From the NCBI GenBank assembly GCA_951406725.2, contig OX597840.1:5766001-5830000 (forward strand): a stretch of DNA of 64,000 nucleotides. The letters run 5' to 3'. Both the position numbers and the translations under genes were made by a program. The notes under the pieces are model-generated. The model saw nothing but the letters and a program-made list of their open reading frames with translations. It made no database searches and was not told the DNA's origin. Numbering within the stretch: position 1 is the stretch's first letter; each line of letters starts with the position of its first letter. Source of the DNA: Octopus vulgaris. Lineage: Eukaryota. This document shows, in pieces, positions 1,569 through 64,000 of this stretch.

Positions 1569-2600
1569 ATAATGAAGATTGCTACAATTGGCCTAGACAC
1601 CTACCTGAAAAACTCTGAGGACTGGATGTTAAAACTTGTCTCAAAACATGAAAACAAGAAAGCATCATACTCAGTAACAAAACAGGCAAAGGAATATCTA
1701 AGTGAATTCCGAATACAACAAATTCCGGAATTAGACATACTATAAACAAGCACAGAAAAAGCTAAACACATGAAAACTCGTGCTAAAACTGCGGCCTTAG
1801 ATATTCTGAATGATAAATGGCCAGAAAAACCTCTCAATGGCAAATATCCAAAGAGAGCGAATAATGCAGATGTTGACAAAGCCCTGACCCATCAATGGCT
1901 AATGGCCTCTGGCTTAAAATCTGAAACAAGGGTTTATCATAGCAGCTCAAGATCAATGCCTACCAACAAGGAACTACCAGGCCAACATATTAAAGAACGG
2001 CAGTAGCCCAACGTGTTGTGTATGCCAACAACAAAATGAAACCATTAATCATGTTGTATCCAAGTGCAGTCTTCTAGCGCCTACAGAGTACCTCAACAGG
2101 CATGATAGAGCTGCACAATATATTCACTGGGTAATTTGCAAAAACCTGGACTTGCCCCATGATAAAAACTGGTGGGAACACAATCCACCTCCAGTGCTTG
2201 AAAATGACCACATCTCACTCCTCTGGAACTTCACCATTCAAACTGACAGGAAGATAGATGCAAATAGGCCAGACATTATATTGAAAGACTTCAGACAAAG
2301 AACATGCCTCCTCATTGATATGACTGTCCCAATAGATATAAACGTGTCTGTCAAGACCTACCAAAAACTGAGCAAATATAAAGATCTTAAAATAGAAATC
2401 AGCAAAATGTGGAACCTGAAGACTAAAACAATACCTGTTGTCATAGGTGCCCTGGGAATGATAGCAAAAGTGGCTGATTGCTACCTAACTCAGATACCAC
2501 GAAACCCAAAAATGGCAGAAATTCAAAAGATAGTGCTCATGGGAACTGCTCATATCCCACGCAAAATACTTTCTATGTAATCTCAAGGTTTAAAACAAAC
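1569..2600 (+). mobile_element. 5'-truncated R4/Dong-like non-LTR retrotransposon (CCHC knuckle + restriction-like endonuclease), frameshifted
   Basis: WLMASGLKSET..AAQDQCLPT, C..C...ET..H...C, RHD, LLWNFTIQTD...RPDII...LIDMTVP...K.SKY.DL...IPVVIGALG are typical REL-domain motifs. Confidence 0.85.
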
Positions 2601-4370: not shown

Positions 4371-4436
4371 TGAAGGCGCGTGGCCTAGTGGTTAGGCTGT
4401 CGCATTCATGATCAGGGAGTGTGGTGGGGTATGCCC

Positions 4437-4915
4437 GTACGGTAATCACCGGTTTACGACAAAAGGAAGCTGGAGACGATGATCTCCTGGGGCTATAAGC
4501 TACAGTAACACCCACCCTTAGTGGTTAGCCATATTGATATGGCTAGTATACTTCACGTTGTCGATTCAGAGATTTATTATTATTTTCGAAATCAGTGACA
4601 AATGTCACTAGGAAAACCTGTAAGTATTTGCAAACAGGTCTTCCTTTTGTCGTAAACCGGTGATTACTGTACGTTGACAAGAGGCAAATTACCTCGAAAC
4701 TGCAGTCCGTGCATATCGCTTAGGTTTACGAGAGAGGGATGACCTCCCTTTGCAAATACCATAAGGGCACAGAAAGTGTGCCTAAAGCCAGCTGGAGACG
4801 ATGATCTCCTGGGGCTACAAGCTACAGTAACACCCACCCTTAGTGGTTAGCCATATTGAGATGGCAAGTATACCTCACAGTTACTGTTTACATCTCGTTC
4901 AGAGATTTATTATTG
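4437..4915 (+). mobile_element. Non-autonomous Penelope-like/retrozyme element: 322-bp monomer, ~115-bp direct repeat, inverted 5' piece
   Basis: 4469-4583 repeats at 4791-4913; 4437-4469 is the reverse complement of 4640-4672; HHR inside; homolog at ~51710-52000(-). Confidence 0.7.
4669..4712 (+). ncRNA. Minimal type-I hammerhead ribozyme, U3-A8 core variant
   Basis: gtacg TTGACAA gagg caaatta cctc GAAA ctgca GTC cgtgc: helix I gtacg/cgtgc, helix II gagg/cctc, palindromic helix III ACTGCAGT, GUC cleavage triplet. Confidence 0.8.
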
Positions 4916-5148
4916 CTATATATATATATATAATACAAAGTAAGATAGGGGTTATGGGTGTAACCCACTATGGGATATCAATAATTTATAATATGACTTT
5001 TAAAATCTGTATTTGTATTATTATCTTATCTATTGATTTATATAATATTTTGTATGCTTCTGATGTTCTCACTTGTAAAATGAATAAATAATTTAACATT
5101 ATAATATCCGTAAGTTGATGAACAAATTATATATATATATCACTTTCC

Positions 5149-7590: not shown

Positions 7591-7646
7591 GCAACAACGA
7601 TATTAAAAAGAAGAAGAAATACAATAAGAATAACAATAACACTTAC

Positions 7647-8156
7647 GTATGAGATCCGGGGAGCCATTGGCATAAAACACCTCGATATTCCTGGAATGGA
7701 AACCGTTGCGACGCAACATATTGTAGATACTTCGGAGGTTGGTCTTGTGTTCCATCTTCAAAGCAAACCGGTTCCATCCACCAGAGAGCAGTACTGCCCA
7801 GTCACAAATCTCCATGGGTCGGCAGCGCGATGTTGTAAGGTGACGCCGTTTTTGACCCAAACTTGTAGTCAGGTCACATCGCTTTGTATTGATTTTCAAC
7901 GGGTCGCACGTTAACCCGGACGTCTCCTTGTCAGGGAGGAAACGTGGACAGGAAGCAGAAAACCCTGGAATGTCTGTATAACAGTACAGTTGTGCTTCCT
8001 TGCTGTTGGCATGGGAACGTCTCTCGTGGAACACCGTCCGCTCGACAGTTGGTATAAAACTGATCTCGCATCGGCGAACCAAATCTGTGTGAGCAGATTT
8101 CGGCCCCAGTTCATTCCTGCACCGACGTCTAATTGCTAGTGATACGCAATCTCCAT
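7647..8156 (-). CDS. Coding exon 2 of the same gene: Cys-rich segment followed by the start of a peptidase C13 (legumain/GPI8)-like domain
   Basis: Pyrimidine-rich acceptor ttttctattccag|AT at 8156 and donor C|GTAAGT at 7646. The phase-1 join with exon 1 reads ...HGYVT-D-GDCVSLAIRRRCRNE... with no stop. It contains WAVLLSGGWN...H..N...IYNML..NGF...NIEVFYANG, matching the pattern of the first strand/helix of C13 proteases. Confidence 0.85.
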
Positions 8157-8229
8157 CTGGAATAGAAAATAATAAAATAATAAATTTTAAAACGTAAATA
8201 ACCTATTGTTATTATTGATATTATCATTA

Positions 8230-13225: not shown

Positions 13226-13309
13226 TGTATATATATAATGTACTCATGTTTTTTGCTTCGGCTTTTTCCATGGGCGCATGTAAGTATCTTATTTATATCC
13301 TTTCATAAG

Positions 13310-13369
13310 TTCTACTGAGGAGGAATGAGTCTTTTATGAGATTAATTCCGAAATTGATTCAATATAGAA
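13310..13369 (+). ncRNA. Diverged hammerhead motif (same family as 47708/48206)
   Basis: CTGAGGA ggaat gagtctt ttat gagatt a attcc GAAA ttga TTC; flanks (ttccatggg...taagta...ttattt; aaattatatg...gcatat.tggc...gccctta) align with the 47.7-kb monomer. Confidence 0.6.
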
Positions 13370-13741
13370 ATAACGAATTTAAAAAAGAATTCTAACGGCC
13401 AGCTTGCCCGACTTCAGTTCTTCGTTTTTTTCTGTAGCAAGTAAATTATATGTGGAAATTGACGATTTATTAGTCTGTTATCAGCATATTGGCTTTGAAA
13501 TAATTTTCTTTAGCCCTTACTTATAAGTTATGTATGTATATATATATATATATATATATATCATCATCATCATCATCATCATCATTTAGCGTCCGCTTTC
13601 CATGCTAGCATGGGTTGGACGGTTCAACTGGGGTCTGTGAAGCCAGAAGGCTGCATCAGGCCCAGTCTGATCTGGCAGTGTTTCTACTGAAACGTGTAAA
13701 TATCGGAAAGATATATATATACATACATATAATATAATATA

Positions 13742-13786
<45 letters not shown>

Positions 13787-13788
13787 TA

Positions 13789-14308
13789 TTAGAAATATTA
13801 AAATTACTAAGTCTCTCTAAAAGAGATTACGGCAGTGTTATTGGAAATTAATTGTTATCGCCATATTAATATGGCAATCTTATAGATATAAGACTAAAAG
13901 CTGTCGCTGATTAGCTCCGTGAGGCCACCGCCTCTAGCTAGCTATTTGACACACAACCTGCGTCCATTATAAACTTCGAACAAGGGAGGTTAGCCGCTTC
14001 ATCCTGCCAGTCAGACAGCTACAGACGCGTTTCAGGGTATTTGCCCCTTGTCAATGTAGCGTAGTCGACCCAGCAGGTGTCGCCACTGATCGTCTCTGTT
14101 CGAAGGTTCTATTTACCTATTTTCGGTGGAATACATCCACTTGTTTTCAATAATAGAAATATTAAAATTACTAAGTCTCTCTAAAGGAGATTACGGCAGC
14201 GTTACTGGAAATTAATTGTTATCGCCATATTAATATGGCAATCTTATGGAGCTTTTAGTCTTATATCTATAAGATTGCCATATTAATATGGCGATAACAA
14301 TTAATTTA
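13789..14308 (-). mobile_element. Penelope-like/retrozyme element: 365-bp monomer, ~95-bp direct repeat, inverted end
   Basis: 13789-13885 repeats at 14154-14247; 14250-14307 is the reverse complement of ~13846-13902; HHR inside; (TA)n flanks. Confidence 0.7.
14018..14060 (-). ncRNA. Minimal type-I hammerhead ribozyme, U3-A8 core variant
   Basis: Minus: gctaca TTGACAA ggggcaaataccct GAAA cgc GTC tgtagc; perfect 6-bp helix I and palindromic ACGCGT helix III. Confidence 0.8.
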
Positions 14309-14341
14309 CATATATATTATTTATATTATATTATATGTATG

Positions 14342-16775: not shown

Positions 16776-18370
16776 CAGTTGCGGCCAAAATGTTCAGAAC
16801 GGCATTGTTTTCGTCAGAAAAGTAAGTATAAGTTTTTATCAAAGTAGTTTTATATTCTATAATTTTCACAGACAATAAATACAACATTAATTGTTATTGT
16901 CTGAGATTTTGGTGTAATTTGAGAGGATAGTACAAAAGTTATGGATGATTTAGTGATTTACTGCAAATCCCATGGCGGCCAAAATGATCAGAACGGTTGA
17001 AAAAATAACAAAATGACAGAGAATACTGGAATTATTTAATATTTAGTGTGAAGCCCTTTAGCTTCAATCACACTCTGACATCTTCGACTGCACGAGGAAA
17101 TTAAATTTTCAATTTCTTGCTGGGTGATCTTATTCCATTCATCCTGAAGGGCATTCCATAATTGCTCGGTTGTTTTAGGATTTCTGGCTTTCGAACGTTC
17201 TCCTAGAATATTCAATACATTTTCAATAGGATTGAGATCTGGGCTTTGAGCAGGCCAATCCATAACAATAACCTTTTCAGCCTTGAGGAAGTTCATGACC
17301 ACCTTAGCCTTGTGACATGGGGCATTGTCCTGCATGAATATGGGTGGTCGCTTAGTTGAATTTCTCAGCACAGGCAAGACATGATCTTTTACAAGTTGTT
17401 TATAAACTCCTGCATTTACCTTTCCATGTAATCGCACCATACGGCCCACACCATCTCCAGATATCATCCCCTAAGCTATGACACTTCCTCCACCGAATTT
17501 AACACTAGTCTTAAGGCACTTAGGCAACAATTTTTCACCTACTTTTCTACGAACGTACCTTTTCCCATCTGAGCCAAATAACATAAACTTAGATTCATCA
17601 CTGAAATGCGCCGTTTGCCATTTTTCTTGAGACCACAACACATGTTCGGTTGCAAAGGTAAGACGACACTTTTTATTCTTGGAGCTGATCAGTGGCTTCA
17701 CTGCAGGTGCTCTTGCTTGTAGGTCATGTTCAACTAAATGACGAGACACAGTTTTTCAAGATAAAGTTTTATTCAATACAATGCTCATTTTCCGAGAAAC
17801 AGCAACTTTAACCAATTTTACCATAGAACGATCTTCTCTCTTGGTCGTTTTTCTTGGCCTACCTGTAAACTTCCTTGCTTCACACGAACCACAATCATCG
17901 TAGACCTTAAGAATACCGTGTACAACACTTTTTGGCTTGTTAACAATCTTTGCAATAGATCCAATACTTAAATTATCCTTCCTTCGAAGCTTAATAATCT
18001 GCTGACGAATTGGTAACGGAGTAAGTGGCATTATATTAACAAAGTACACTGCAAATATTCTTACTAATGTTTAGTAAACGAACCGCCACGTAAACAAATT
18101 CAAAACATTAGAGTTCGTCGGTTAAATATACTAAAACACGGAGTAAAAGCAACCGTTCTGATCATTTTGGCCGCCACGGGTTTTGCAGTAAATCACTAAA
18201 TTATCTATAACTTTTGTATTATCCTCTCAAATTACACCAAAATCTCAGGCAATAACAAATAATATCGTATTTATTGTCTGTGAAAATTATAGAATATAAA
18301 ACCACTTTGATAAAAAGTTATATCTACTTTTCTGACGAAAACAATGCCGTTCTGAACATTTTGGCCGCCA

Positions 18371-27543: not shown

Positions 27544-27589
27544 GACACCTGATGAAGGCTGGAGGGTATATCAGCCGAAACGTTGTGTT
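27544..27589 (+). ncRNA. Minimal type-I hammerhead ribozyme, canonical core
   Basis: gacac CTGATGA a ggctg gagggtatat cagcc GAAA c GTT gtgtt; palindromic AACGTT helix III. Confidence 0.8.
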
Positions 27590-28270: not shown

Positions 28271-30043
28271 GATGATGATGATAATAATAATAATAATAAT
28301 AATAATAAAAGAAGAAGAAGAAGAAGAAGAAGAAGAAGAAGAAGAAGAAGAAGAAGAAGAAGAAGAAAAAGAAAAGAAGAAGAAAGAAGAAGAAGAAAAA
28401 GAAGAAGCAGAAGAAGAAGAAGGCAGAAGAAGGAGAAGAAGAAGAAGAAGAAGAAGAAGAAGAAGAAGAAGAAGAAGAAGAAGAAGAAGAAAGTGTAAAT
28501 ATTGGATGATGCAGAATTAGTGAAACCAGAAAGGAATTCGGTTCATTGGAATCTTCAAAATTTCCTCTGGAATCCCGTGTGTACTTTCTGCTCGGGGTGA
28601 AACATTTCTCCAACGGTAACAATTGCGGATATAGGAAATAAAATCTCGTTGCAGATCGCCCATTTCGCCCTGTGCATAGAACGTTTTTATATGACACCTG
28701 CTGGGCACTAACATACTTCATGTAATTATCTAATATATGATAATTAATAAATATTACACGCGAAGTAGGGGAGAAAAAAAGATCACTAACCGTTTTCGCC
28801 GGCACGCAGATGGTTTTTATGACACCTGCCTATGCTAAATAATTAGTTTAATGAGTACTATCATACTTCGTGTTATGGAGGTGCGTGGCTTAGTGGTTAG
28901 GATGTTGTCCTCGCGATTACAAGATTACACAGACACACAAACACATATATATACATATACATATATACGACGGGTTTCTTTCAGTTTCTGCCTACCAAAT
29001 CCACTCACAAGGCTTTGGTCGGCCCGAGGCTATAGTAGATGACACTTGTCCAAGGTGCCACACAGTGGGACTGAACCCGGAACCATGTGGTTGGTAAGCA
29101 AACTACTTACCACACAGCCACTCCTGCGCCTATAATTATGATTTTATTCAACATATTCCCCTCTCAGATTCACACACTTATTGGAGTGATCCTTCAAGTT
29201 TTTAAGCCCTGTAAAAGAACTCAGTAAGTTGAGCCTTTCACAATACCAAGAACTTTTTCTGCTCTCCCTTTTTTCAACCACCAGAATAACTTGTGAGTTA
29301 TGTAAGGAAAACTTTATAGTACTTAAAACATATGCAACACGGGTTAAATAAAATTCTGAAAGGAAGCATGGATGTTCAGGACAAACTTATGAAAATATTT
29401 TATACGGGTAAAAGGTCAGTCACTAGGCCTCACTGAAAGGTTAAAAATAAATCAATAAAACAGCCAGAGAGGATAAAAATAATTTGACGCTGAGTACTTG
29501 ACAATAAGTAACCGAGAGAAATCATACAATATTTTATGCAGCGTAGAGGGGAACTTGGCTATGCACAAGATGTGGCCCAGGTACTCAACTGTTGCAGAGA
29601 AGTTCTTTCAAGGTTAAGCGAAGGTGGGATTTTTAAATTTTAAATCAAAAAGTAAAGAAGGTTTTCAGAATGTATATATTAATGGTTCTTGTTCTCCCAC
29701 TTTATGAAGAATTTAAATTTTCGTGTTATATGTATCTATGTATAGCGCCATTTCATCCTTATTTCATAACGTCAGCATGGCATAACTTCAGGTAAATACA
29801 TTCGGCTAAAGTAAACATTTTACGAAGTTAAACAATTCTTAGAGAGAGAGAAAATAGTTTACAGTTTAAAAAGTATTCATTTAAAAGGCATGGATTTGTT
29901 CCACAGGAGGAAATAAGCATTCCTACCATGACCACTCCACCTTTTCGGAGAAATATCTTGGACTACCTTAAATCCTTAAAATCCTTTAAAACGTTTTAGC
30001 CCGAAGGCCGCGGCCATGCTGAGGCACCACCGCTGTGCGCTAT

Positions 30044-30161
30044 GCTTACTGCACCTAGGTTTCCCAAGCGGTCACCCATCTAAGTACTCACTAGGCTCGA
30101 CGTTGCTTAACTTCGGTGATCAGACGAGAACCGGTGCTTTCAACGTGATATGGCCGTGAGC
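30044..30161 (-). rRNA. Dispersed 5S rRNA copy (gene or pseudogene)
   Basis: Minus: GCTCACGGCCATATCACGTTGAAAGCACCGGTTCTCGTCTGATCACCGAAGTTAAGCAACGTCGAGCCTAGTGAGTACTTAGATGGGTGACCGCTTGGGAAACCTAGGTGCAGTAAGC (118 nt); no oligo-T terminator. Confidence 0.85.
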
Positions 30162-33789: not shown

Positions 33790-34745
33790 TATTATTACAT
33801 GTTTGACTTTTGCTTTGTATTTGTACAAGTTGGCTCCAAGTTTCACCCAGAGACCTCAAGAGACAACAAGTTAGAAGTTCATGTTGGTGTTATGCTAGGG
33901 TGTCATATATTTGATTTTGTACAAAGTCTTCTTCTAAGAAATGCTTAAGAAAACATAAGAAAATTATGAGTTTGTTTCAAAATTTGAGATTACATAGACA
34001 GTATTTTACGTCGGATATGGGCAGTTCCCATGAGCATTATCTTTCGAATTTCTGACATTTTGGGGTTTTCTGGTATCTAAGATAGGTAGCAATCAGCCAC
34101 TTTTGTTATCATTCCCAGGGCACCTATGACAACAGATATTGTTTTAGTCTTCAGGTCCCACATTTTGCCAATTTCTATTTCAAGATCTTTATTACTTGCT
34201 CAGTTTTTGGTAGGTCTTAACAGATACATTTACGTCGATTGGGACAGTCATATCAATGAGGAGGTATGATTTTTGTCTGAAGTCTTTCAATATGTCTGAC
34301 CTATTCGTATCTATCTTTCTGACAGTTTGAACGGTGAAGTTCCAGAGGAGTGAGATGTGATCATTTTCAAGCACTGGAGGTGGTTTGTGTTCCCACCAGT
34401 TTTTATCATGGGGCAGGTCCAGGTTTTTGCAAATTACCCAGTGAATATACTGTGCTGCTCTATCATGCCTGTTGAGATAATCTGTAGGTGCAAGAAGACT
34501 GCACATGGAGACAACATGATCAATAGTTTCATTTTGTTGTTGACATACACTACATGTTGGGCTACTGCCATTCTTTAATATGTTGACCTGGTGGTTTCTT
34601 GTAGGTAGGCATTGATCTTGGGCTGCTGTGATAAACCCTTCTGTTTCTGATTTTAAGCCAGAAGCCATTAACCATTAATGGGTAAGGGCTTTGTCAACAT
34701 CGGCATTATTAACTCTCTTTGGGTTTTTTTTTTTTGCCATTTATT
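33790..34745 (-). mobile_element. R4/Dong-like LINE 3' fragment with 3' UTR
   Basis: Homologous to 1569-2600; CCHC + REL motifs; UTR ends in TAATAATAAT. Confidence 0.85.
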
Positions 34746-35503: not shown

Positions 35504-35557
35504 AAAAAAAAAAAATTCTTTGTAATTTTCTCCATAGTTTCAACAGTGACCCGGATA

Positions 35558-35652
35558 TTGAAAGCAACGGTTCTCGTCCGATCACCGAAGTTAAACAACG
35601 TCGACCCTAGTGAGTACTTGGGTGACCGCTTGGGAAACCTGGGTGTTGTAAG
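35558..35652 (+). pseudogene. 5S rRNA pseudogene (5'-damaged, internal deletion)
   Basis: TTGAAAGCAACGGTTCTCGTCCGATCACCGAAGTTAAACAACGTCG...AGTACTTGGGTGACCGCTTGGGAAACC...GTAAGC. Confidence 0.8.
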
Positions 35653-35702
35653 CCTCTCACACTATTGACCTTTATGGTTAATAAAGAGTTAAAACAATAC
35701 CA

Positions 35703-39780: not shown

Positions 39781-40096
39781 ACATACATATACACACACAC
39801 ACACACAAACATATATATATATACATTTGTATGTATTAAGGTATGTACATATATATATTTCTTTAATGTATATACATATATAAATAAATAAATAAATATT
39901 CACATACAGACACAAACACATTCATATAGTTATACATGAATATATGTACACGTACATATTTACATACATACATGCATACAAGTAATGCCGTTATACGCAA
40001 TCTATCTCACCACACGCGCGCACTCACCCTCCGCTCATACACGCATACATGCACACAACACTCTCTCTCTCTCTCTCTGCAATATTTGTCCCTTAC

Positions 40097-40625
40097 CTGT
40101 GACATAGCCGTGGTTTCGTTCGCAGTGGGCCTTCCCGACTGTTTGGTCAATAAAATACACCAGTACCAAATGTCCAAAACTAGCCGTAGGATACGGGTCG
40201 AGGACTAACACACCCGCATGAGTCCGTCCTTTGTCGATGGCTCGATCAGGAAGTAAAGCCCTATATTTTCCATGGGGCATTGGCTCAGCCACGTAGATGT
40301 TAAACTCAGATTTAGGGAGGCGCAAAACCCTCTCGCATTCAACTGGGCTCGTTATAAACGGTTGACGGCTGCAGTTCCGACCCCGGAGCAGTTCAAATGC
40401 CGTGTTCGCCCAGCGCTCACGGCGCTTTCGGCGCGCGGCCTCCGACGAGAATCTAGCCGAAGATGCTGATGCCGATGATGAAAACGATGATGATGATGAT
40501 GAGAAAGACGACGACGACGACGATGACTTGGTCGCGGGTTCGCGTAGCCGGTGCAGCACAACAGATCCGCTGTGGTGGACGTGGAGCAAGGTAAATGCCG
40601 TTAAACACAACACGAACGTCTTCAT
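40097..40625 (-). CDS. Coding exon 1 of an uncharacterised secreted protein (signal peptide, Ser-rich linker, furin-type RRKRR site, globular N-terminal domain)
   Basis: ATG at 40625 gives [24 protein letters not shown] (hydrophobic signal-like), poly-Ser, ARRKRR, then complex sequence (...[23 protein letters not shown]...CERNHGYVT). It ends at donor ACAG|GTAAGG (intron starts 40096). 529 nt, phase 1. Confidence 0.85.
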
Positions 40626-40821
40626 GTTCAATTGAAATGTGTGAATATTTGTATGTATGTATATGTATATATATATATGTATATATGTATGTATTTATGT
40701 ATATATGTATGTATGTATATATATATATATGTATGTATGTATGTATGTATATATATGTATATATGTATGTATTTATGTATATATGTATATATATGTATGT
40801 ATTTATGTATATATGTATATA

Positions 40822-47470: not shown

Positions 47471-47547
<77 letters not shown>

Positions 47548-47707
47548 TGAAGGATAACATTTTTTTCGAAAAAAATTCTTTTCCAAAAAAAAATTTTATC
47601 AATGGCCAGCATATCAAAAATACCTTTAAAGGTTAAATCTATAAACAATTCATAAATAAGGGCAAACGAAAAAATTTCTAATGCCAGATATGCCGATATT
47701 GCCACAT

Positions 47708-47762
47708 GTATCACTGACGAAGGGAGGGCTGTTAGAAGCTAACCCTGAAATCGGTCCGATAT
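47708..47762 (+). ncRNA. Type-I hammerhead ribozyme copy 1
   Basis: gtatca CTGACGA aggg agggct gttaga agct aa ccct GAAA tcg GTC cgatat. Confidence 0.75.
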
Positions 47763-48205
47763 TGTAATAATGGAATGTTTTAGAAATTTCTGTCGACCTT
47801 TTTTTCCAGTAGCGTGCGTATTGTGAAAAAATTATATGGTTAATGGACAATATGTCCAATTTTTCGGCATATCTGGCATTAGAAATTTTTTCGTTTGCCC
47901 TTATTTATGAATTGTTTATAGATTTAACCTTTAATGGTATTTTTTGATATGCTGGCCATTGATAAAATTTTTTTTGGAAAATAATTTTTTTCGAAAAAAA
48001 TTTTATCCTTCATCAGATATAAATTTAAGTGTTCACTTCCGGACTCTTTCACTCTGTGAGAGCATCAGTTCAAATCGTACGTGTCTCGAATGGGCTAGAG
48101 TATTTCTATTTTGGATATATTTGGGGTACTTAATTGTGCTCATGACTTAGTGATTGCTTCTTCCATGGGTATGAGTAAGTAACTCATTTATTTCTTTTGC
48201 CACAT

Positions 48206-48260
48206 GTATCACTGACGAAGAGAGGGCTCTTAGTAGCTAACTCTGAAATCGGTCCGATAT
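48206..48260 (+). ncRNA. Type-I hammerhead ribozyme copy 2
   Basis: gtatca CTGACGA agag agggct cttagt agct aa ctct GAAA tcg GTC cgatat. Confidence 0.75.
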
Positions 48261-48412
48261 GGTAATAATGGAATGTTTTAGAAATTTCTGTCGAGCTTTT
48301 TTCGAGTAGTGTGCATATTGTGAAAAAATTATATGGCTAATGGACAATATGTCCAATTTTTCGGCATATCTGGCATTAGAAATTTTTTCGTTTGCCCTTA
48401 TTTATGAAATTG

Positions 48413-48525
<113 letters not shown>

Positions 48526-51400: not shown

Positions 51401-51868
51401 AATAAGGCACCGTACAGGTAAAATTATGAATAAGAAGTAGTGGTGCAACAAGGCACCAATGTTTGCTGGAAATAGCAGTCGATAACGATACGACGCTATG
51501 TAGAGCTTCACTGAAATATATACTGGCGAAGCTATATGCGGGCAGCGCACTTAAAAATTTGTCATCTTACCTCTAGGCAGAACATCGTAAAAATGAACAA
51601 CCCAAAATAGATAATCTAGGACCCGAATTTCGGACCTTCCAAAATACGATTGCATAATTAAATCTCAGAATGAGATTGAAACAGTAATCGCTCGATAATG
51701 TAAAGTATAGAAGCCATCTTATCATGGCTAACCACATTAGGGAGGGGGTGTTACTGTAGCTTTATAGCCCCAAGAGATCTTCGTCTCTGGCTGGCTTTAG
51801 ACACAATATCTGTGTCCTTGGAGTATTTGCAAAGGGAGGCCATCCCCTCCTCGCAAGCCTGAGTGATA

Positions 51869-51911
51869 CGCTCGAACTAGTTTCGGGATTTTTGTCCCTC
51901 GTCAACGGGCG
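51869..51911 (-). ncRNA. Minimal hammerhead, U3.G8 core variant, in a homolog of the 4.4-4.9 kb element
   Basis: Minus: cgcccg TTGACGA gggac aaaa atccc GAAA cta GTT cgagcg; palindromic AACTAGTT. Confidence 0.72.
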
Positions 51912-52254
51912 GTAACCACCAGGTAGCGATGAAAGAGAAGGCTCCTTTGCAAATAGATATAAGTTTTTCTAATGGCATCTGCCACTGATGTCGAAAAACG
52001 AACAGTAAGCATTGTTATCGTAAAACGAACAGTAAGATTGTTATCGTAAATTTGATTAGTCCTCATCAGCTAGATTCACCTGTGACGAAAATTTAAAATA
52101 TTGTTACATCTTGCCAGTATATTCGGCTGAACTCCTGGCCATTAACGACCGAGATCGGGGGAAAAGTCTTCTATAAAAATTTCAAATATCATTGCAATAC
52201 AATAGTATCCCTTTCTAACCAAAGAAAGCACCGTATTGGTAGAATTATGATATT

Positions 52255-54699: not shown

Positions 54700-55063
54700 C
54701 CAAATACAACAAATTCTAGAATCAGACGTACTGCAAACAAGCACAGAAAAAGTTAAGCGTATGAAAACCCGTGCTAAAACTGCTGCCTTAGATATTCTTA
54801 CTGATAAATGGCAAGAAAAACCTCTCAATGGCAAATACCCAAAGAGAGCTAATAATGCCGATGTTGACAAAGCCCTTACCCATCGAAGGTTAAAGGCTTC
54901 TGGCTAAAAATCAGAAACAGAAGGGTTTATCACAGCAGCCCAAGATCAATGCCTAACTACAACAAAATCCACCTAGCCAACATATTAAAGAATGGCAGTA
55001 GCCCAACATGTAGTGTATGTCAACAACAAAATGAAACCATTGATCATGTTGTCTCCATGTGCA
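54700..55063 (+). mobile_element. R4/Dong-like LINE internal fragment
   Basis: Homologous to ~1715-2065. Confidence 0.8.
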
Positions 55064-55115
55064 CCTTAAGCATTTCGCCCGACGTGCTAACAACTCTGCC
55101 AGCTCGCCGCCTTAA

Positions 55116-55194
<79 letters not shown>

Positions 55195-55548
55195 CCTTTC
55201 TACTAAGGCCTGAAATTTTGGTGGGAGGAGGCTAGTCGATTACATCGACCCCGGTACGCAACTAGCACTTGATTTATCGACCCCCAAAAGATGAAAGTCA
55301 AGGTCAACATAGACAGAATTTGAACTCAGAACGTAAAGACGGATGAAATGCCGCTAAGCATTTTGTCCGGCTCTTTAACAATTCTGTGTGTGAAAATGAA
55401 CGAAGAAATACGAAATGAATAACGTTGCAAGACAGAATGAAAGAATAAAAGAATGACTGATTGAAAACAGTGTATGAATGAAAGAATTTGTGAGCGAAAG
55501 AATGTGCGTTTGAATGAATGAATGAATGAAAAGAAAATGAGGTTGAGT

Positions 55549-59810: not shown

Positions 59811-60062
59811 CAGAACAATAGAAAAACACCGTAATGAGAGTAGGACTAGAAAGGTACGTTGAGTGGACTGTCGAGGGTGGGTGGGTGAGTGAGTTAGGTG
59901 GTGGTGATGGTAGCGGTGGTGGTGGCGTAGCTGCGGGGTGGTGACGGTGGGGACAGCAGCGATAATGGTGGTAATGGGTAAATGATGGAATTGACGAAGG
60001 GTTGTTAAACGGTGGGTGGGACACAAGAAATGTACATACATACATACATCTTTTGAATATGT

Positions 60063-61769: not shown

Positions 61770-62003
61770 GTATTTATCTATAATATATGCATATATATGT
61801 ATTTTCATATATATACGCATGTATGTATATAACTACACAGACATACGCACATATATGCCCGTATATTTATTATTTCTTCTTCAAGCACAAGGCCCTGAGT
61901 AGAAATAATAAATATATGGGTATATATTATTTACGTCGGGCTCCAGTATGACCGCAGCCGCATGGCTCAAGCGAGTAAAAGAATAAAAGAGAATATATGT
62001 ACG

Positions 62004-62053
<50 letters not shown>

Positions 62054-62122
62054 AAATTAAAGAAGGAAAATGCACTCACTACATAGTTTTAATATATTTT
62101 TTTATATATCTTGTATTGTGTT

Positions 62123-62155
62123 TGTCGACCGGTTTCGCTTTCGCTATTCATGACA
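62123..62155 (-). ncRNA. 33-nt ultra-minimal hammerhead-like motif, A3-U8 core
   Basis: Minus: tgtc ATGAATA gc gaaa gc GAAA ccg GTC gaca; identical to 63329-63361. Confidence 0.65.
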
Positions 62156-62641
62156 TTAAAATTTATTTAAATACATATTTTCTTAAAAAGAAATTTTTTG
62201 ATCCATGTTGTGTGTGAAATTTATGACTAGGAAGATACATTGAGTTGACTGGCGAAGAGAAGCGGGTTTAGGTTGTGGTGATGGTAGCGGTGGTGTATAC
62301 ATATGTATATATTCATATGTGTGTGTGTGTGCGTGTATGTGTGTGGGGGGGAGGCACAATGGCACAGTGGTTAGGGCAACGGACTCGCGGTCGTAGGATC
62401 GCGGTTTCGATTCCCAGACCGGGCGTTGTGAGTGTTTATTGAGCAAAAACACCTAAAAGCTCCACGAGCTCCGGCGATCCCTGCTGTAAACTTTCCCAAC
62501 AACTTTCTCTCACTCTTTCTTCTGTTGGTCCGCTCGCTTAGCCAGCGTGGTGGCGTCATTTGAAGGCTAAAACAATGCGAAGCGCATTGTGACCAGCGAT
62601 GTGTAGCAATATCTGTTAGCCTGGTCGGTCACGGTGATCAT

Positions 62642-62685
<44 letters not shown>

Positions 62686-62879
62686 TATTTATATTATTAT
62701 ACACATATATATTATGTTGTTTCACATGAAATGTCGCATTTTTAATTACTTGTTATTTCAGTCAAATAAAAAACCCAATTATGTATACCTTGCATTTAAT
62801 CTTGACTTTTTTTCTTTCCCAAAAATACTGGTATACAAAATTCGTACCCACAGACCTTATGGAAATGATAACACCCAAA

Positions 62880-63835
62880 CCATGTTGAGTGATTTTCTCC
62901 TATGAGTACAAACCGGGTCACTCTGCCGCAGAAACTCTACGGAATATCAAGCGGTCATTTGGTAATGGTTTTGTTGTCATCAGAACTGTTCAGAGATGAT
63001 TCCAAAGCTCTCGTTCAAGAGATGATAGCCTTAAAAATAAACCAAAGGTTAGGCCCAAATCAGTTATTTGGCGTGATGGATTAAATGCTTTGATTGAACA
63101 AACCCCGAGAAAGGTTCGAAAACTTTCATCAGAACTCCAGACAACACGCACAACTGTTTTTGGACACCTGTAAAAATTTGGAAAAGTCAAGAAAACGGAT
63201 AGCTTTGTTCCACATCAACTGAACGAGACCCAAAAATATAGACGCCTCGAAGTGTGCTCCCTATTGCTTTTTCGACTTCAAAAAGACCAAATCATTTTTA
63301 AGAAAATATGTATTTAAATAAATTTTAATGTCATGAATAGCGAAAGCGAAACCGGTCGACAAACACATATATATATATATATAAAAATACATACATACAT
63401 ACATACATACATTGTGATGAGAAATGGACACTCTTCGACAACAGCAAGAGAACAGGACAGCGATTAGATTACCCAAACCCACCATTGCACTCTAAAAAGT
63501 TAGTGGTCACTGTATGGTGGTCTGTGAAGGGAGTTATTCATTTTTCATTTTTGCAACTAAGAAAAACGGTAACAGCAACATAATATTGCCAGGAAACTGG
63601 CAATACGATGTTGCTGTTACCGTATACATGATAATTTGAAAAAGAAGCAACCTAGACTAGTGACTAGAGATGGCCCAATTTTTCTCCACGACAATGCAGG
63701 TCCTTACACTCCTCAAGCTAAGGTCCAAAAGTTGAAAAGCCTGAATTATGAAAGTTTGCAACATCCTACATATTCCCCTGATATCCTTCTCACTGATCAT
63801 CACTTAGTTAAGCATTTTGAGCTTTTTATAAGCAA
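62880..63835 (+). pseudogene. mariner (DD34D-type) transposase pseudogene, interrupted by an HHR-bearing insert
   Basis: FVPHQL, CDEKW, VTVWWS.KGVIH, FLHDNA, HPTYSPD...D motifs; multiple stops and frameshifts. Confidence 0.85.
63329..63361 (+). ncRNA. 33-nt ultra-minimal hammerhead-like motif, A3-U8 core
   Basis: tgtc ATGAATA gc gaaa gc GAAA ccg GTC gaca: helix I tgtc/gaca, 2-bp helix II with GAAA tetraloop, palindromic ACCGGT, GUC triplet. Confidence 0.65.
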
Positions 63836-63843
63836 TTTTTTGG

Positions 63844-64000
63844 GGAAGCACTCCGTCGGTTACGACGACGAGGGTTCCGGTTGATCCGATCAACGGAACA
63901 GCCTGCTCGTGAAATTAACGTGTAAGTGGCTGAGCACTCCACAGACACGTGTACCCTTAACGTAGTTCTCGGGGATATTCAGCGTGACACAGAGCGTGAC
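63844..64000 (-). mobile_element. SINE C 3' part (runs off the window)
   Basis: Matches 24712-24870. Confidence 0.8.

Follow-up and report, generated by a model that had tools for sequence, protein, structure and literature searches.

We suggest that a 33-nt motif, which occurs twice in the window (the whole stretch of 64,000 nucleotides of Octopus vulgaris DNA analysed here), is probably a minimal type I hammerhead of a Penelope-like (PLE) family. By the same reading, both copies are fragments of the terminal repeat of an element, 5′-truncated and retaining its 3′ end, and the second of them (copy B) was made from the same template as the first (copy A).

The duplicated segment is identical at 73 of 73 bases when the window is compared with itself, 62117-62189 on the minus strand matching 63295-63367 on the plus strand. 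This agrees with the preliminary description of two identical inverted 73-bp copies, each with a 33-nt A3-U8 motif, and our parse of the motif is the same. A weaker likeness extends to 63393, the equivalent of 62093 (99 columns, 94%). Copy A outreaches copy B on both sides and has a length of ~180 bp. Between the identical segments lie 1,105 bp of host DNA, and a tandem arrangement is absent at this locus. As a type I motif, it has a helix I of 4 bp (UGUC/GACA) and a core of A3 U4 G5 A6 A7 U8 A9 followed by G12 A13 A14, in which the Watson-Crick pair at 3-8 is A3-U8. In vitro assays are reported to have covered every one of the four Watson-Crick pairs at 3-8. Helix II is GC-GAAA-GC, i.e., two G-C pairs capped by a GAAA loop of the GNRA type. 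The G10.1-C11.1 pair is present (63340 G and 63347 C in copy B), and there is no extra unpaired base between A9 and 10.1. The helix III side consists of the palindrome A15.1-CCGG-U16.1, after which C17 follows. When the central 25-mer is searched at up to 3 mismatches, it has two matches in the window and 0 in 100 shuffles.

Table 1. Positions of the two copies, of the host sequence around them and of other features in the window.
Feature	Positions	Strand	Basis or remark
(TA)n microsatellite at the 3′ end of copy A, likely target	62006..62051	.	sequence
Copy A, 5′-truncated end (pLTR-like fragment) of the dispersed repeat family	about 62052..62230	-	contig depth far above the neighbouring unique stretch; 5′ limit approximate (62226-62232)
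~41-bp 3′ extension found in copy A only (inferred PLE-type 'tail')	62052..62092	-	homology of copy B stops at the equivalent of 62093; depth step
Hammerhead-like motif, copy A	62123..62155	-	sequence, descriptor, cofold; predicted cut after C17 at 62127
Low-copy spacer	62233..62352	.	depth 15.8 (X1) and 16 (X3) at 62233-62292
SINE-like repeat of very high copy number between the copies, with (TA)n at its end	62353..62640	+	summed contig depth 0.9-5.7 million (X1); SINE label inferred
Mariner fossil, 5′ half, from the HTH region up to the residues immediately ahead of the first catalytic D; stops present	62707..63296	+	Pfam HTH_48; 849 relatives at E<=0.001 (full HMMER search); tblastn
Copy B, inserted in the mariner	63295..63393	+	sequence; exact over 63295-63367, weaker to 63393
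Hammerhead-like motif, copy B	63329..63361	+	sequence, descriptor, cofold; predicted cut after C17 at 63357
(TA)n/(TACA)n at the 3′ junction of copy B	63368..63409	.	sequence; first ~25 bases partly like copy A
Mariner fossil, 3′ half from (T)CDEKW	63408..63833	+	Pfam Transposase_1; tblastn; right limit approximate, cut off by another repeat
28-nt direct repeat, low-complexity, GGT-rich	59894..59921 and 62268..62295	+	96%; 2.4 kb apart; one copy in the spacer beside copy A
PLE-type unit with U3-A8 hammerhead at 4674	4436..4917	+	partial tandem 4462-4581/4784-4914; 5′ end with an inverted piece of 34 bp, 3′ end with (TA)n; ACUGCAGU as helix III palindrome
Relative of the unit at 4436-4917	51654..51997	-	75%
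PLE-type unit with U3-A8 hammerhead at 14054	13786..14310	-	flanked by (TA)n; partial tandem 13786-13886/14150-14250; inverted piece as far as 14310; ACGCGU as palindrome
Unit with C3-G8 motifs at 47713 and 48212	47547..48424	+	partial tandem (93%); 151-bp inverted copy
Unit with C3-G8 motif at 13315	13261..13530	+	68% like 47547-48424
Minimal hammerhead equal to the published PLE consensus	27549	+	C3-G8; helix II of 6 bp; A9 followed by an extra A; helix III absent
Dispersed 5S rRNA copy	30043..30161	-	104.9 bits
Dispersed 5S rRNA copy, decayed	35536..35654	+	54.8 bits
Tc1-type transposase fossil	17036..18070	-	Pfam DDE_3
Non-LTR retrotransposon 3′ end	1918..2580	+	weak zf-RVT, below cut-off
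Non-LTR retrotransposon 3′ end	34192..34674	-	weak zf-RVT, below cut-off
Non-LTR retrotransposon 3′ end	54868..55206	-	
Exon-like open frame	40035..40694	-	no Pfam match; signal-peptide-like start, serine run
Exon-like open frame	7603..8202	-	no Pfam match

The motif belongs to a dispersed repeat family. Four public sequencing runs were aligned to 62053-63852, i.e., X1 (apparently DNA, organism A), X3 (apparently DNA, organism B), X16 (apparently RNA) and X22 (raw reads). Summed contig depth over 62113-62172 is 17,464 in X1 and 54,968 in X3, whereas the adjacent low-copy stretch gives the depths in Table 1 and single listed contigs give 14-32 (X1) and 44-59 (X3). Summed contig depth is not equal to copy number and can be used as an order of magnitude only; at this resolution the motif is covered by ~600-1,400 copies and the AT-rich part on its 5′ side by 50-130, and the family has roughly 100-1,000 copies. 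The family depth covers the span of copy A and has its peak over the motif. In X1 it goes from ~17,000 at the motif to 1,727 at 62175, 642 at 62201 and 16 at 62233-62292. At 62175 a letter other than that of the window is found in 47 (X1) and 49 (X3) distinct contigs and accounts for 75% (X1), 92% (X3) and 100% (X16) of the depth. The letter of the window is thus a minority letter, and it is common to both copies. In view of these contigs and the high summed depth, the case of a mere local duplication with no other genomic copies, which the preliminary description had considered, falls away. Relative to copy A, the two longest of the listed family contigs have 15 changed sites in 120 and 12 in ~102 (~12%). 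The family contigs in X16 reach 62216 and 62226, and they show neither expression of the locus nor RNA ends. No listed contig bridges the junctions of the copies. The raw reads of X22 hold 8 alignments in 1,934 million letters and give no confirmation of a high copy number. Since the SINE between the copies, which is far more abundant, is nearly empty in these reads as well, we read their scarcity as the result of filtering and not of a low copy number.

Copy B lies within a mariner fossil. Pfam identifies HTH_48 (E 6e-7) and the CDEKW part of Transposase_1 (E 6e-13) in the halves that flank it, and (TA)n and (TACA)n are found downstream, which bears out the earlier claim that the plus-strand copy interrupts the mariner just before CDEKW and is followed by (TA)n. 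The insertion of copy B leaves the two domains colinear. The 1.1 kb that separates the copies is therefore host DNA that has stayed where it was, and we rejected the idea that it is the cargo of a single inserted unit. Unlike the full HMMER search, a word-based protein search with the fossil gave no match. The xDExW motif is present in 51 of the best 150 mariner relatives, where the residues before it are mostly PFLDRIVT. We also considered the first 13 bases of the 73-mer as mariner coding sequence ('IFKKI') and rejected this. Relatives have PFLDRIVT before CDEKW, which makes the 'IFKKI' read over the left junction a coincidence; the frameshifted relative P0005 has ...NHCM at its end, and in that frame the window gives NH at 63290-63295, directly to the left of copy B. 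It seems from these alignments that the left part of the mariner stretches to about 63296 and the right part begins at about 63408, hardly any of its sequence having been lost through the insertion. At the left junction some two T's appear to be common to both sides, and a separate loss of 15 nt of mariner probably lies immediately upstream (to the left) of the insertion.

The ends of the copies resemble those of PLEs. In the portions of the literature drawn on here, PLE insertions are 5′-truncated, often have an inverted copy, carry a 30-40-bp tail at one end and show a (TA)n bias (Craig et al. 2021, PMC8557442). The tail is the sequence between two reverse-transcription start sites, and cutting and extension take place on both strands (Frangieh et al. 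2024, PMC11167929). In the same source, the hammerhead of PAc cleaves only with protein and is dispensable for insertion in vitro. At the present locus the 3′ end of copy A abuts (TA)n and has ~41 extra 3′ bases relative to copy B. The 3′ ends of both copies adjoin (TA)n, but this is a weak criterion because the window has 298 such runs on both strands. An A run after (TA)n, as at copy B, is found at only 3 of the 298, copy B's included. In X1 the depth at 62078 is 835, while its bin averages 7,006, and there is a step near 62090 in X1 and 62079 in X3. This family-level step in the tail region is suggestive only, as an indel at 62078-62079 and the AT-rich sequence distort depth. PLE units known from the literature have their inverted truncated copy right beside them, at the 5′ end, whereas such a neighbouring copy, or a partial tandem, is absent here. 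No RT/GIY-YIG ORF was found near the two copies in the window. Taken as sequence features, the ends suggest a PLE parentage of the motif family. Of the 'recently mobile element' proposed earlier, the mobile PLE-type repeat stands on its copies, tail and (TA)n; 'recently' is less well supported, given the ~12% divergence of the two longest contigs listed, and a coupled local event is the likelier account of the identity.

Copy B is best seen as coupled to copy A rather than independent of it. At a divergence of 10-12.5%, identity at 73 of 73 bases has a probability of 5e-4 to 6e-5. If a genome of 2.5 Gb is assumed with 300-3,000 copies, two of them would lie within 1.3 kb of each other with a probability of 0.0003-0.003. 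Thus the 73/73 identity and the 1.1-kb spacing, set against the ~12% divergence of the two longest family contigs listed, argue for a local coupled event rather than a young family. That the same RNA, or a nascent transcript, gave rise to copy B by a second insertion has in our estimate a little less than an even chance. Alternatively, and this is a real but lesser possibility, copy B could be the product of DNA repair. A break in the mariner would have been healed by fold-back synthesis on copy A (a microhomology-mediated template switch) with microsatellite filler, and no retrotransposition would have taken place. Such an origin is favoured by the perfect identity including the minority letter, the inverted orientation and the 1.1-kb distance. 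Copy B is also wholly contained within copy A, ~2 T's stand at its left junction with almost no mariner lost, and the mariner ORF offers no native (TA)n target. However, copy B ends ~41 bp before the end of copy A, near the depth step, as would be expected for an alternative start of reverse transcription and not for a repair tract with an arbitrary end, and its 3′ side adjoins (TA)n/(TACA)n like the other PLE-type ends in the window.

Folding predictions were made for the isolated motif and for longer pieces. The monomer hammerhead fold of the 33-mer lies at +2.7 kcal/mol and its MFE at -3.4 kcal/mol, and when two isolated 33-mers are cofolded the MFE structure is a double hammerhead at -14.9 kcal/mol. 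Among random sequences matching the descriptor, the double hammerhead is the MFE in 2 of 1,500 (0 of 500 in an initial set). The same test gives 47 of 1,500 when the GAAA loop is fixed, and 350 when the loop, second pair, palindrome and A3 are all fixed. With natural flanks the double hammerhead is not the MFE: in copy B pieces of 71 and 101 nt the pairing is by way of (TA)n, and in the cofold of the 178-nt copy A the palindrome is paired and helix I is not. The earlier proposal that dimerisation through ACCGGT is needed is thus upheld as a prediction for isolated 33-mers, where the fold needs a partner, and it does not carry over to the MFE with flanks. We rejected A3-U8 as a folding advantage, as the C3-G8 and U3-A8 versions cofold equally well and only G3-C8 fails. 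Since the copies face opposite ways, one transcript holds one sense and one antisense copy, and the duplex of a sense and an antisense 73-mer is predicted at -111.6 kcal/mol. The opposed copies cannot be mutual dimer partners in one transcript, where a 73-bp duplex would form instead, and the predicted partner must be a copy in the same orientation (a tandem parent) or another molecule. The locus itself, with single opposed motifs and no ORF, is most likely inert.

We consider it quite probable that A3-U8 is family-wide. This rests on the rows listed without a variant in the motif and on the improbability of two compensating transversions. Inside 62123-62155 there is no substitution among the 40 of 157 rows listed, apparently those with a share near 100% in some run, and no indel among the 12 of 15 indel rows listed, though these include rows with shares of 9-18%. 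Instead, the family could once have had an ordinary PLE hammerhead (C3-G8 or U3-A8, with a longer helix II), the odd features being private decay in copy A that was then duplicated to copy B in a dead motif. The distance of the longest listed family contigs from copy A would fit such decay, as would the count of 40 of 157 for the substitution rows listed and the absence of A3 from all 56 motifs of one published PLE set (PMC4209133, its Fig. S3 rows). Yet private decay demands two compensating transversions and a clean shortening to a GNRA-capped G-C stem. The rows listed hold no indel in helix II despite those at 9-18% share, the depth peaks over the motif, and the fold is far better than in random descriptor matches. 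We therefore think it unlikely.

In line with the recently mobile element of the preliminary description, the two copies could also be independent insertions from a very young subfamily. The window letter at 62175 makes up about a quarter of the X1 depth, and at 2% divergence the probability of 73/73 identity would be 0.23. The letter sharing is weakened as an argument by the nature of the change, which is of the CpG-decay type and can recur. Moreover, proximity alone has a probability of the order of 0.001, and identity at a divergence of 10-12.5% has the low probability given above, which makes independent insertion improbable in our estimate.

A chance look-alike in an AT-rich non-PLE repeat, such as the end of a SINE or MITE, is very unlikely. 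Rfam covariance models report no hammerhead at the gathering score in the whole window, nor among the 24 matches at E<=10 in 62000-63500, and the hammerhead descriptor, which accepts any Watson-Crick pair at 3-8, is post hoc, having been composed once the motif was known. A 19-letter piece of the motif has 2 matches in metagenome and 5 in genome contigs; all seven are without hammerhead helices, and such strings arise by chance in large collections. The 23-letter motif pattern has 0 matches in viral and metagenome contigs. A3-U8 with the GC-GAAA-GC helix II gives 3 matches in viral contigs, none of them a hammerhead. Against coincidence, the core, G10.1-C11.1, GNRA loop, palindrome, NUH and helix I all occur together, and the ends are PLE-like. 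The descriptor finds 5 sites in the window, two of which are the A3-U8 motif copies, and 0 in 30 block-wise dinucleotide shuffles. Furthermore, viral hammerheads use the same helix II: with a C3-G8 core it has 9 matches in viral contigs, of which 7 have helices I and III and 6 have at least 3 pairs in each. As for the identity of the two copies, an assembly fault is a highly improbable source.

In the Penelope-like reading that we favour, the parent element would be transcribed as tandem or partial-tandem copies, and ACCGGU would serve to pair two motifs that face the same way. The paired motifs would build a common 6-bp helix III, swap their helix I strands and cut after GUC. By analogy with relatives, cleavage would probably be slow and possibly occur only with the protein of the element bound. 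At the present locus the motifs, being single, opposed and without an ORF, would be passengers. Copy A would have inserted at a (TA)n run with its optional 3′ tail kept, and copy B would be a tail-less second copy of the same template, placed in a dead mariner 1.1 kb away. The same machinery, acting on the same RNA or on the nascent transcript of copy A, most likely made it.

Judged by sequence, at least four other hammerhead-bearing repeat families of PLE type are present in the window. Their motifs have U3-A8 at 4674 and 14054 and C3-G8 at 27549, 47713/48212 and 13315 (Table 1). Three of the other hammerhead-bearing units have partial tandems with an inverted copy and (TA)n ends. Rfam gives no match for any hammerhead motif of the window. 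Entire families of hammerheads in genomes of this kind thus escape Rfam as well as descriptors that call for C3-G8.

The class of hammerheads is well described already, and the locus itself is probably inert. If the A3-U8 motif is family-wide and active, an animal retroelement would supply the fourth Watson-Crick option for core pair 3-8, and the motif would give a lower size bound for natural dimeric hammerheads. The motif would also be a cheap system in which selection on PLE ribozymes for cleavage can be set against selection for shape only. Potentially, a family of about a thousand copies has fixed A3-U8 together with a helix II of 2 bp under a GNRA cap, and its motif can cleave only as a dimer. 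It would then be a natural A3-U8 hammerhead kept by selection in an animal and about the smallest natural double hammerhead, while the opposed pair records a PLE re-copying nascent RNA nearby from an alternative start. We offer this fuller account tentatively, and it is rather doubtful in all its parts together.

The comparison with known systems is based on portions of the cited papers. The closest relatives are the minimal hammerheads in the pLTRs of metazoan PLEs (Cervera and de la Pena 2014, PMC4209133), which number thousands per genome, include a U3-A8 variant, have low dimeric activity and a palindromic helix III, and occur in opposite-strand pairs 100-700 bp apart. They share with the present motif type I topology, a 4-bp helix I that lies within the ~3-5 bp of the class, G10.1-C11.1 and a palindromic helix III that needs a dimer. 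Dispersed single copies of truncated elements, opposite-strand pairs and a length near that of the smallest motifs (34-38 nt) are also common to both; by our own count of Fig. S3, the Caenorhabditis motifs total 34-35 nt. The differences lie in the 3-8 pair, where A3 is found in 0 and U3 in 3 of the 56 rows of Fig. S3 (own count), and in helix II, which has 2 bp here whereas the shortest in these rows has 3 bp and the consensus about 6 bp. In addition, the extra base after A9 of the consensus CUGANGAH is absent here, as it is in a few of theirs, e.g., Marsupenaeus, and no ORF is linked at the present locus.

In the portion of Perreault et al. (2011, PMC3088659) compared, prokaryotic and phage hammerheads often have a stem II of two pairs and show natural U3-A8 covariation, and bases covarying at 3-8 were shown to be active. 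The 2-bp stem II and a Watson-Crick exchange at 3-8 are thus shared, but their natural covariant is U3-A8, not A3-U8. Seven viral-contig loci (L008, L009, L012-L016) have the identical GC-GAAA-GC helix II. Like the prokaryotic and phage examples, they differ from ours in that their core is C3-G8 and their helix III, which has 3-4 bp beyond A15.1-U16.1, is self-contained. These seven loci (match at 61-79) have longer shared flanks that look structured and fall into two groups, and the 139-nt sequences are without an Rfam match at E<=0.1; the hammerhead is possibly nested in another RNA motif. In view of this shared helix II, the common 2-bp stem II and the published PLE hammerheads of 34-35 nt, the term 'ultra-minimal' used in the preliminary description is overstated.

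Small PLE-associated variants with a short palindromic stem III and dimeric cleavage (Lunse, Weinberg and Breaker 2017, PMC5785218; via PMC6765202, PMC6466107 and PMC6155905) likewise share with our motif the stem III, the dimer and the PLE link. A natural A3-U8 hammerhead was not found in the literature searched; Lunse et al. (2017, PMC5785218) lies outside this part of the comparison and may list A3-U8 or 2-bp stem II variants. The PAc Poseidon element of Anolis (PMC11167929) is similar in its model, with two starts of reverse transcription, an optional 30-40-bp tail, AT-rich targets, cutting and extension of both strands and a protein-assisted hammerhead. It differs in having a full ORF and a C3-G8 core, and there is no sign in the compared portion that the present family is Poseidon-type. 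Retrozymes of the non-LTR type (Cervera and de la Pena 2020, PMC7229834; preprint of Li et al. 2026, 10.64898/2026.07.22.740005) are also non-coding, hammerhead-bearing and PLE-derived, with many solo copies, but they form head-to-tail tandems with mostly canonical hammerheads, whereas two single opposed fragments are found in the window. Thus the only distinctive trait of the present motif is the combination of A3-U8 with a 2-bp helix II, and its other parts are mostly precedented.
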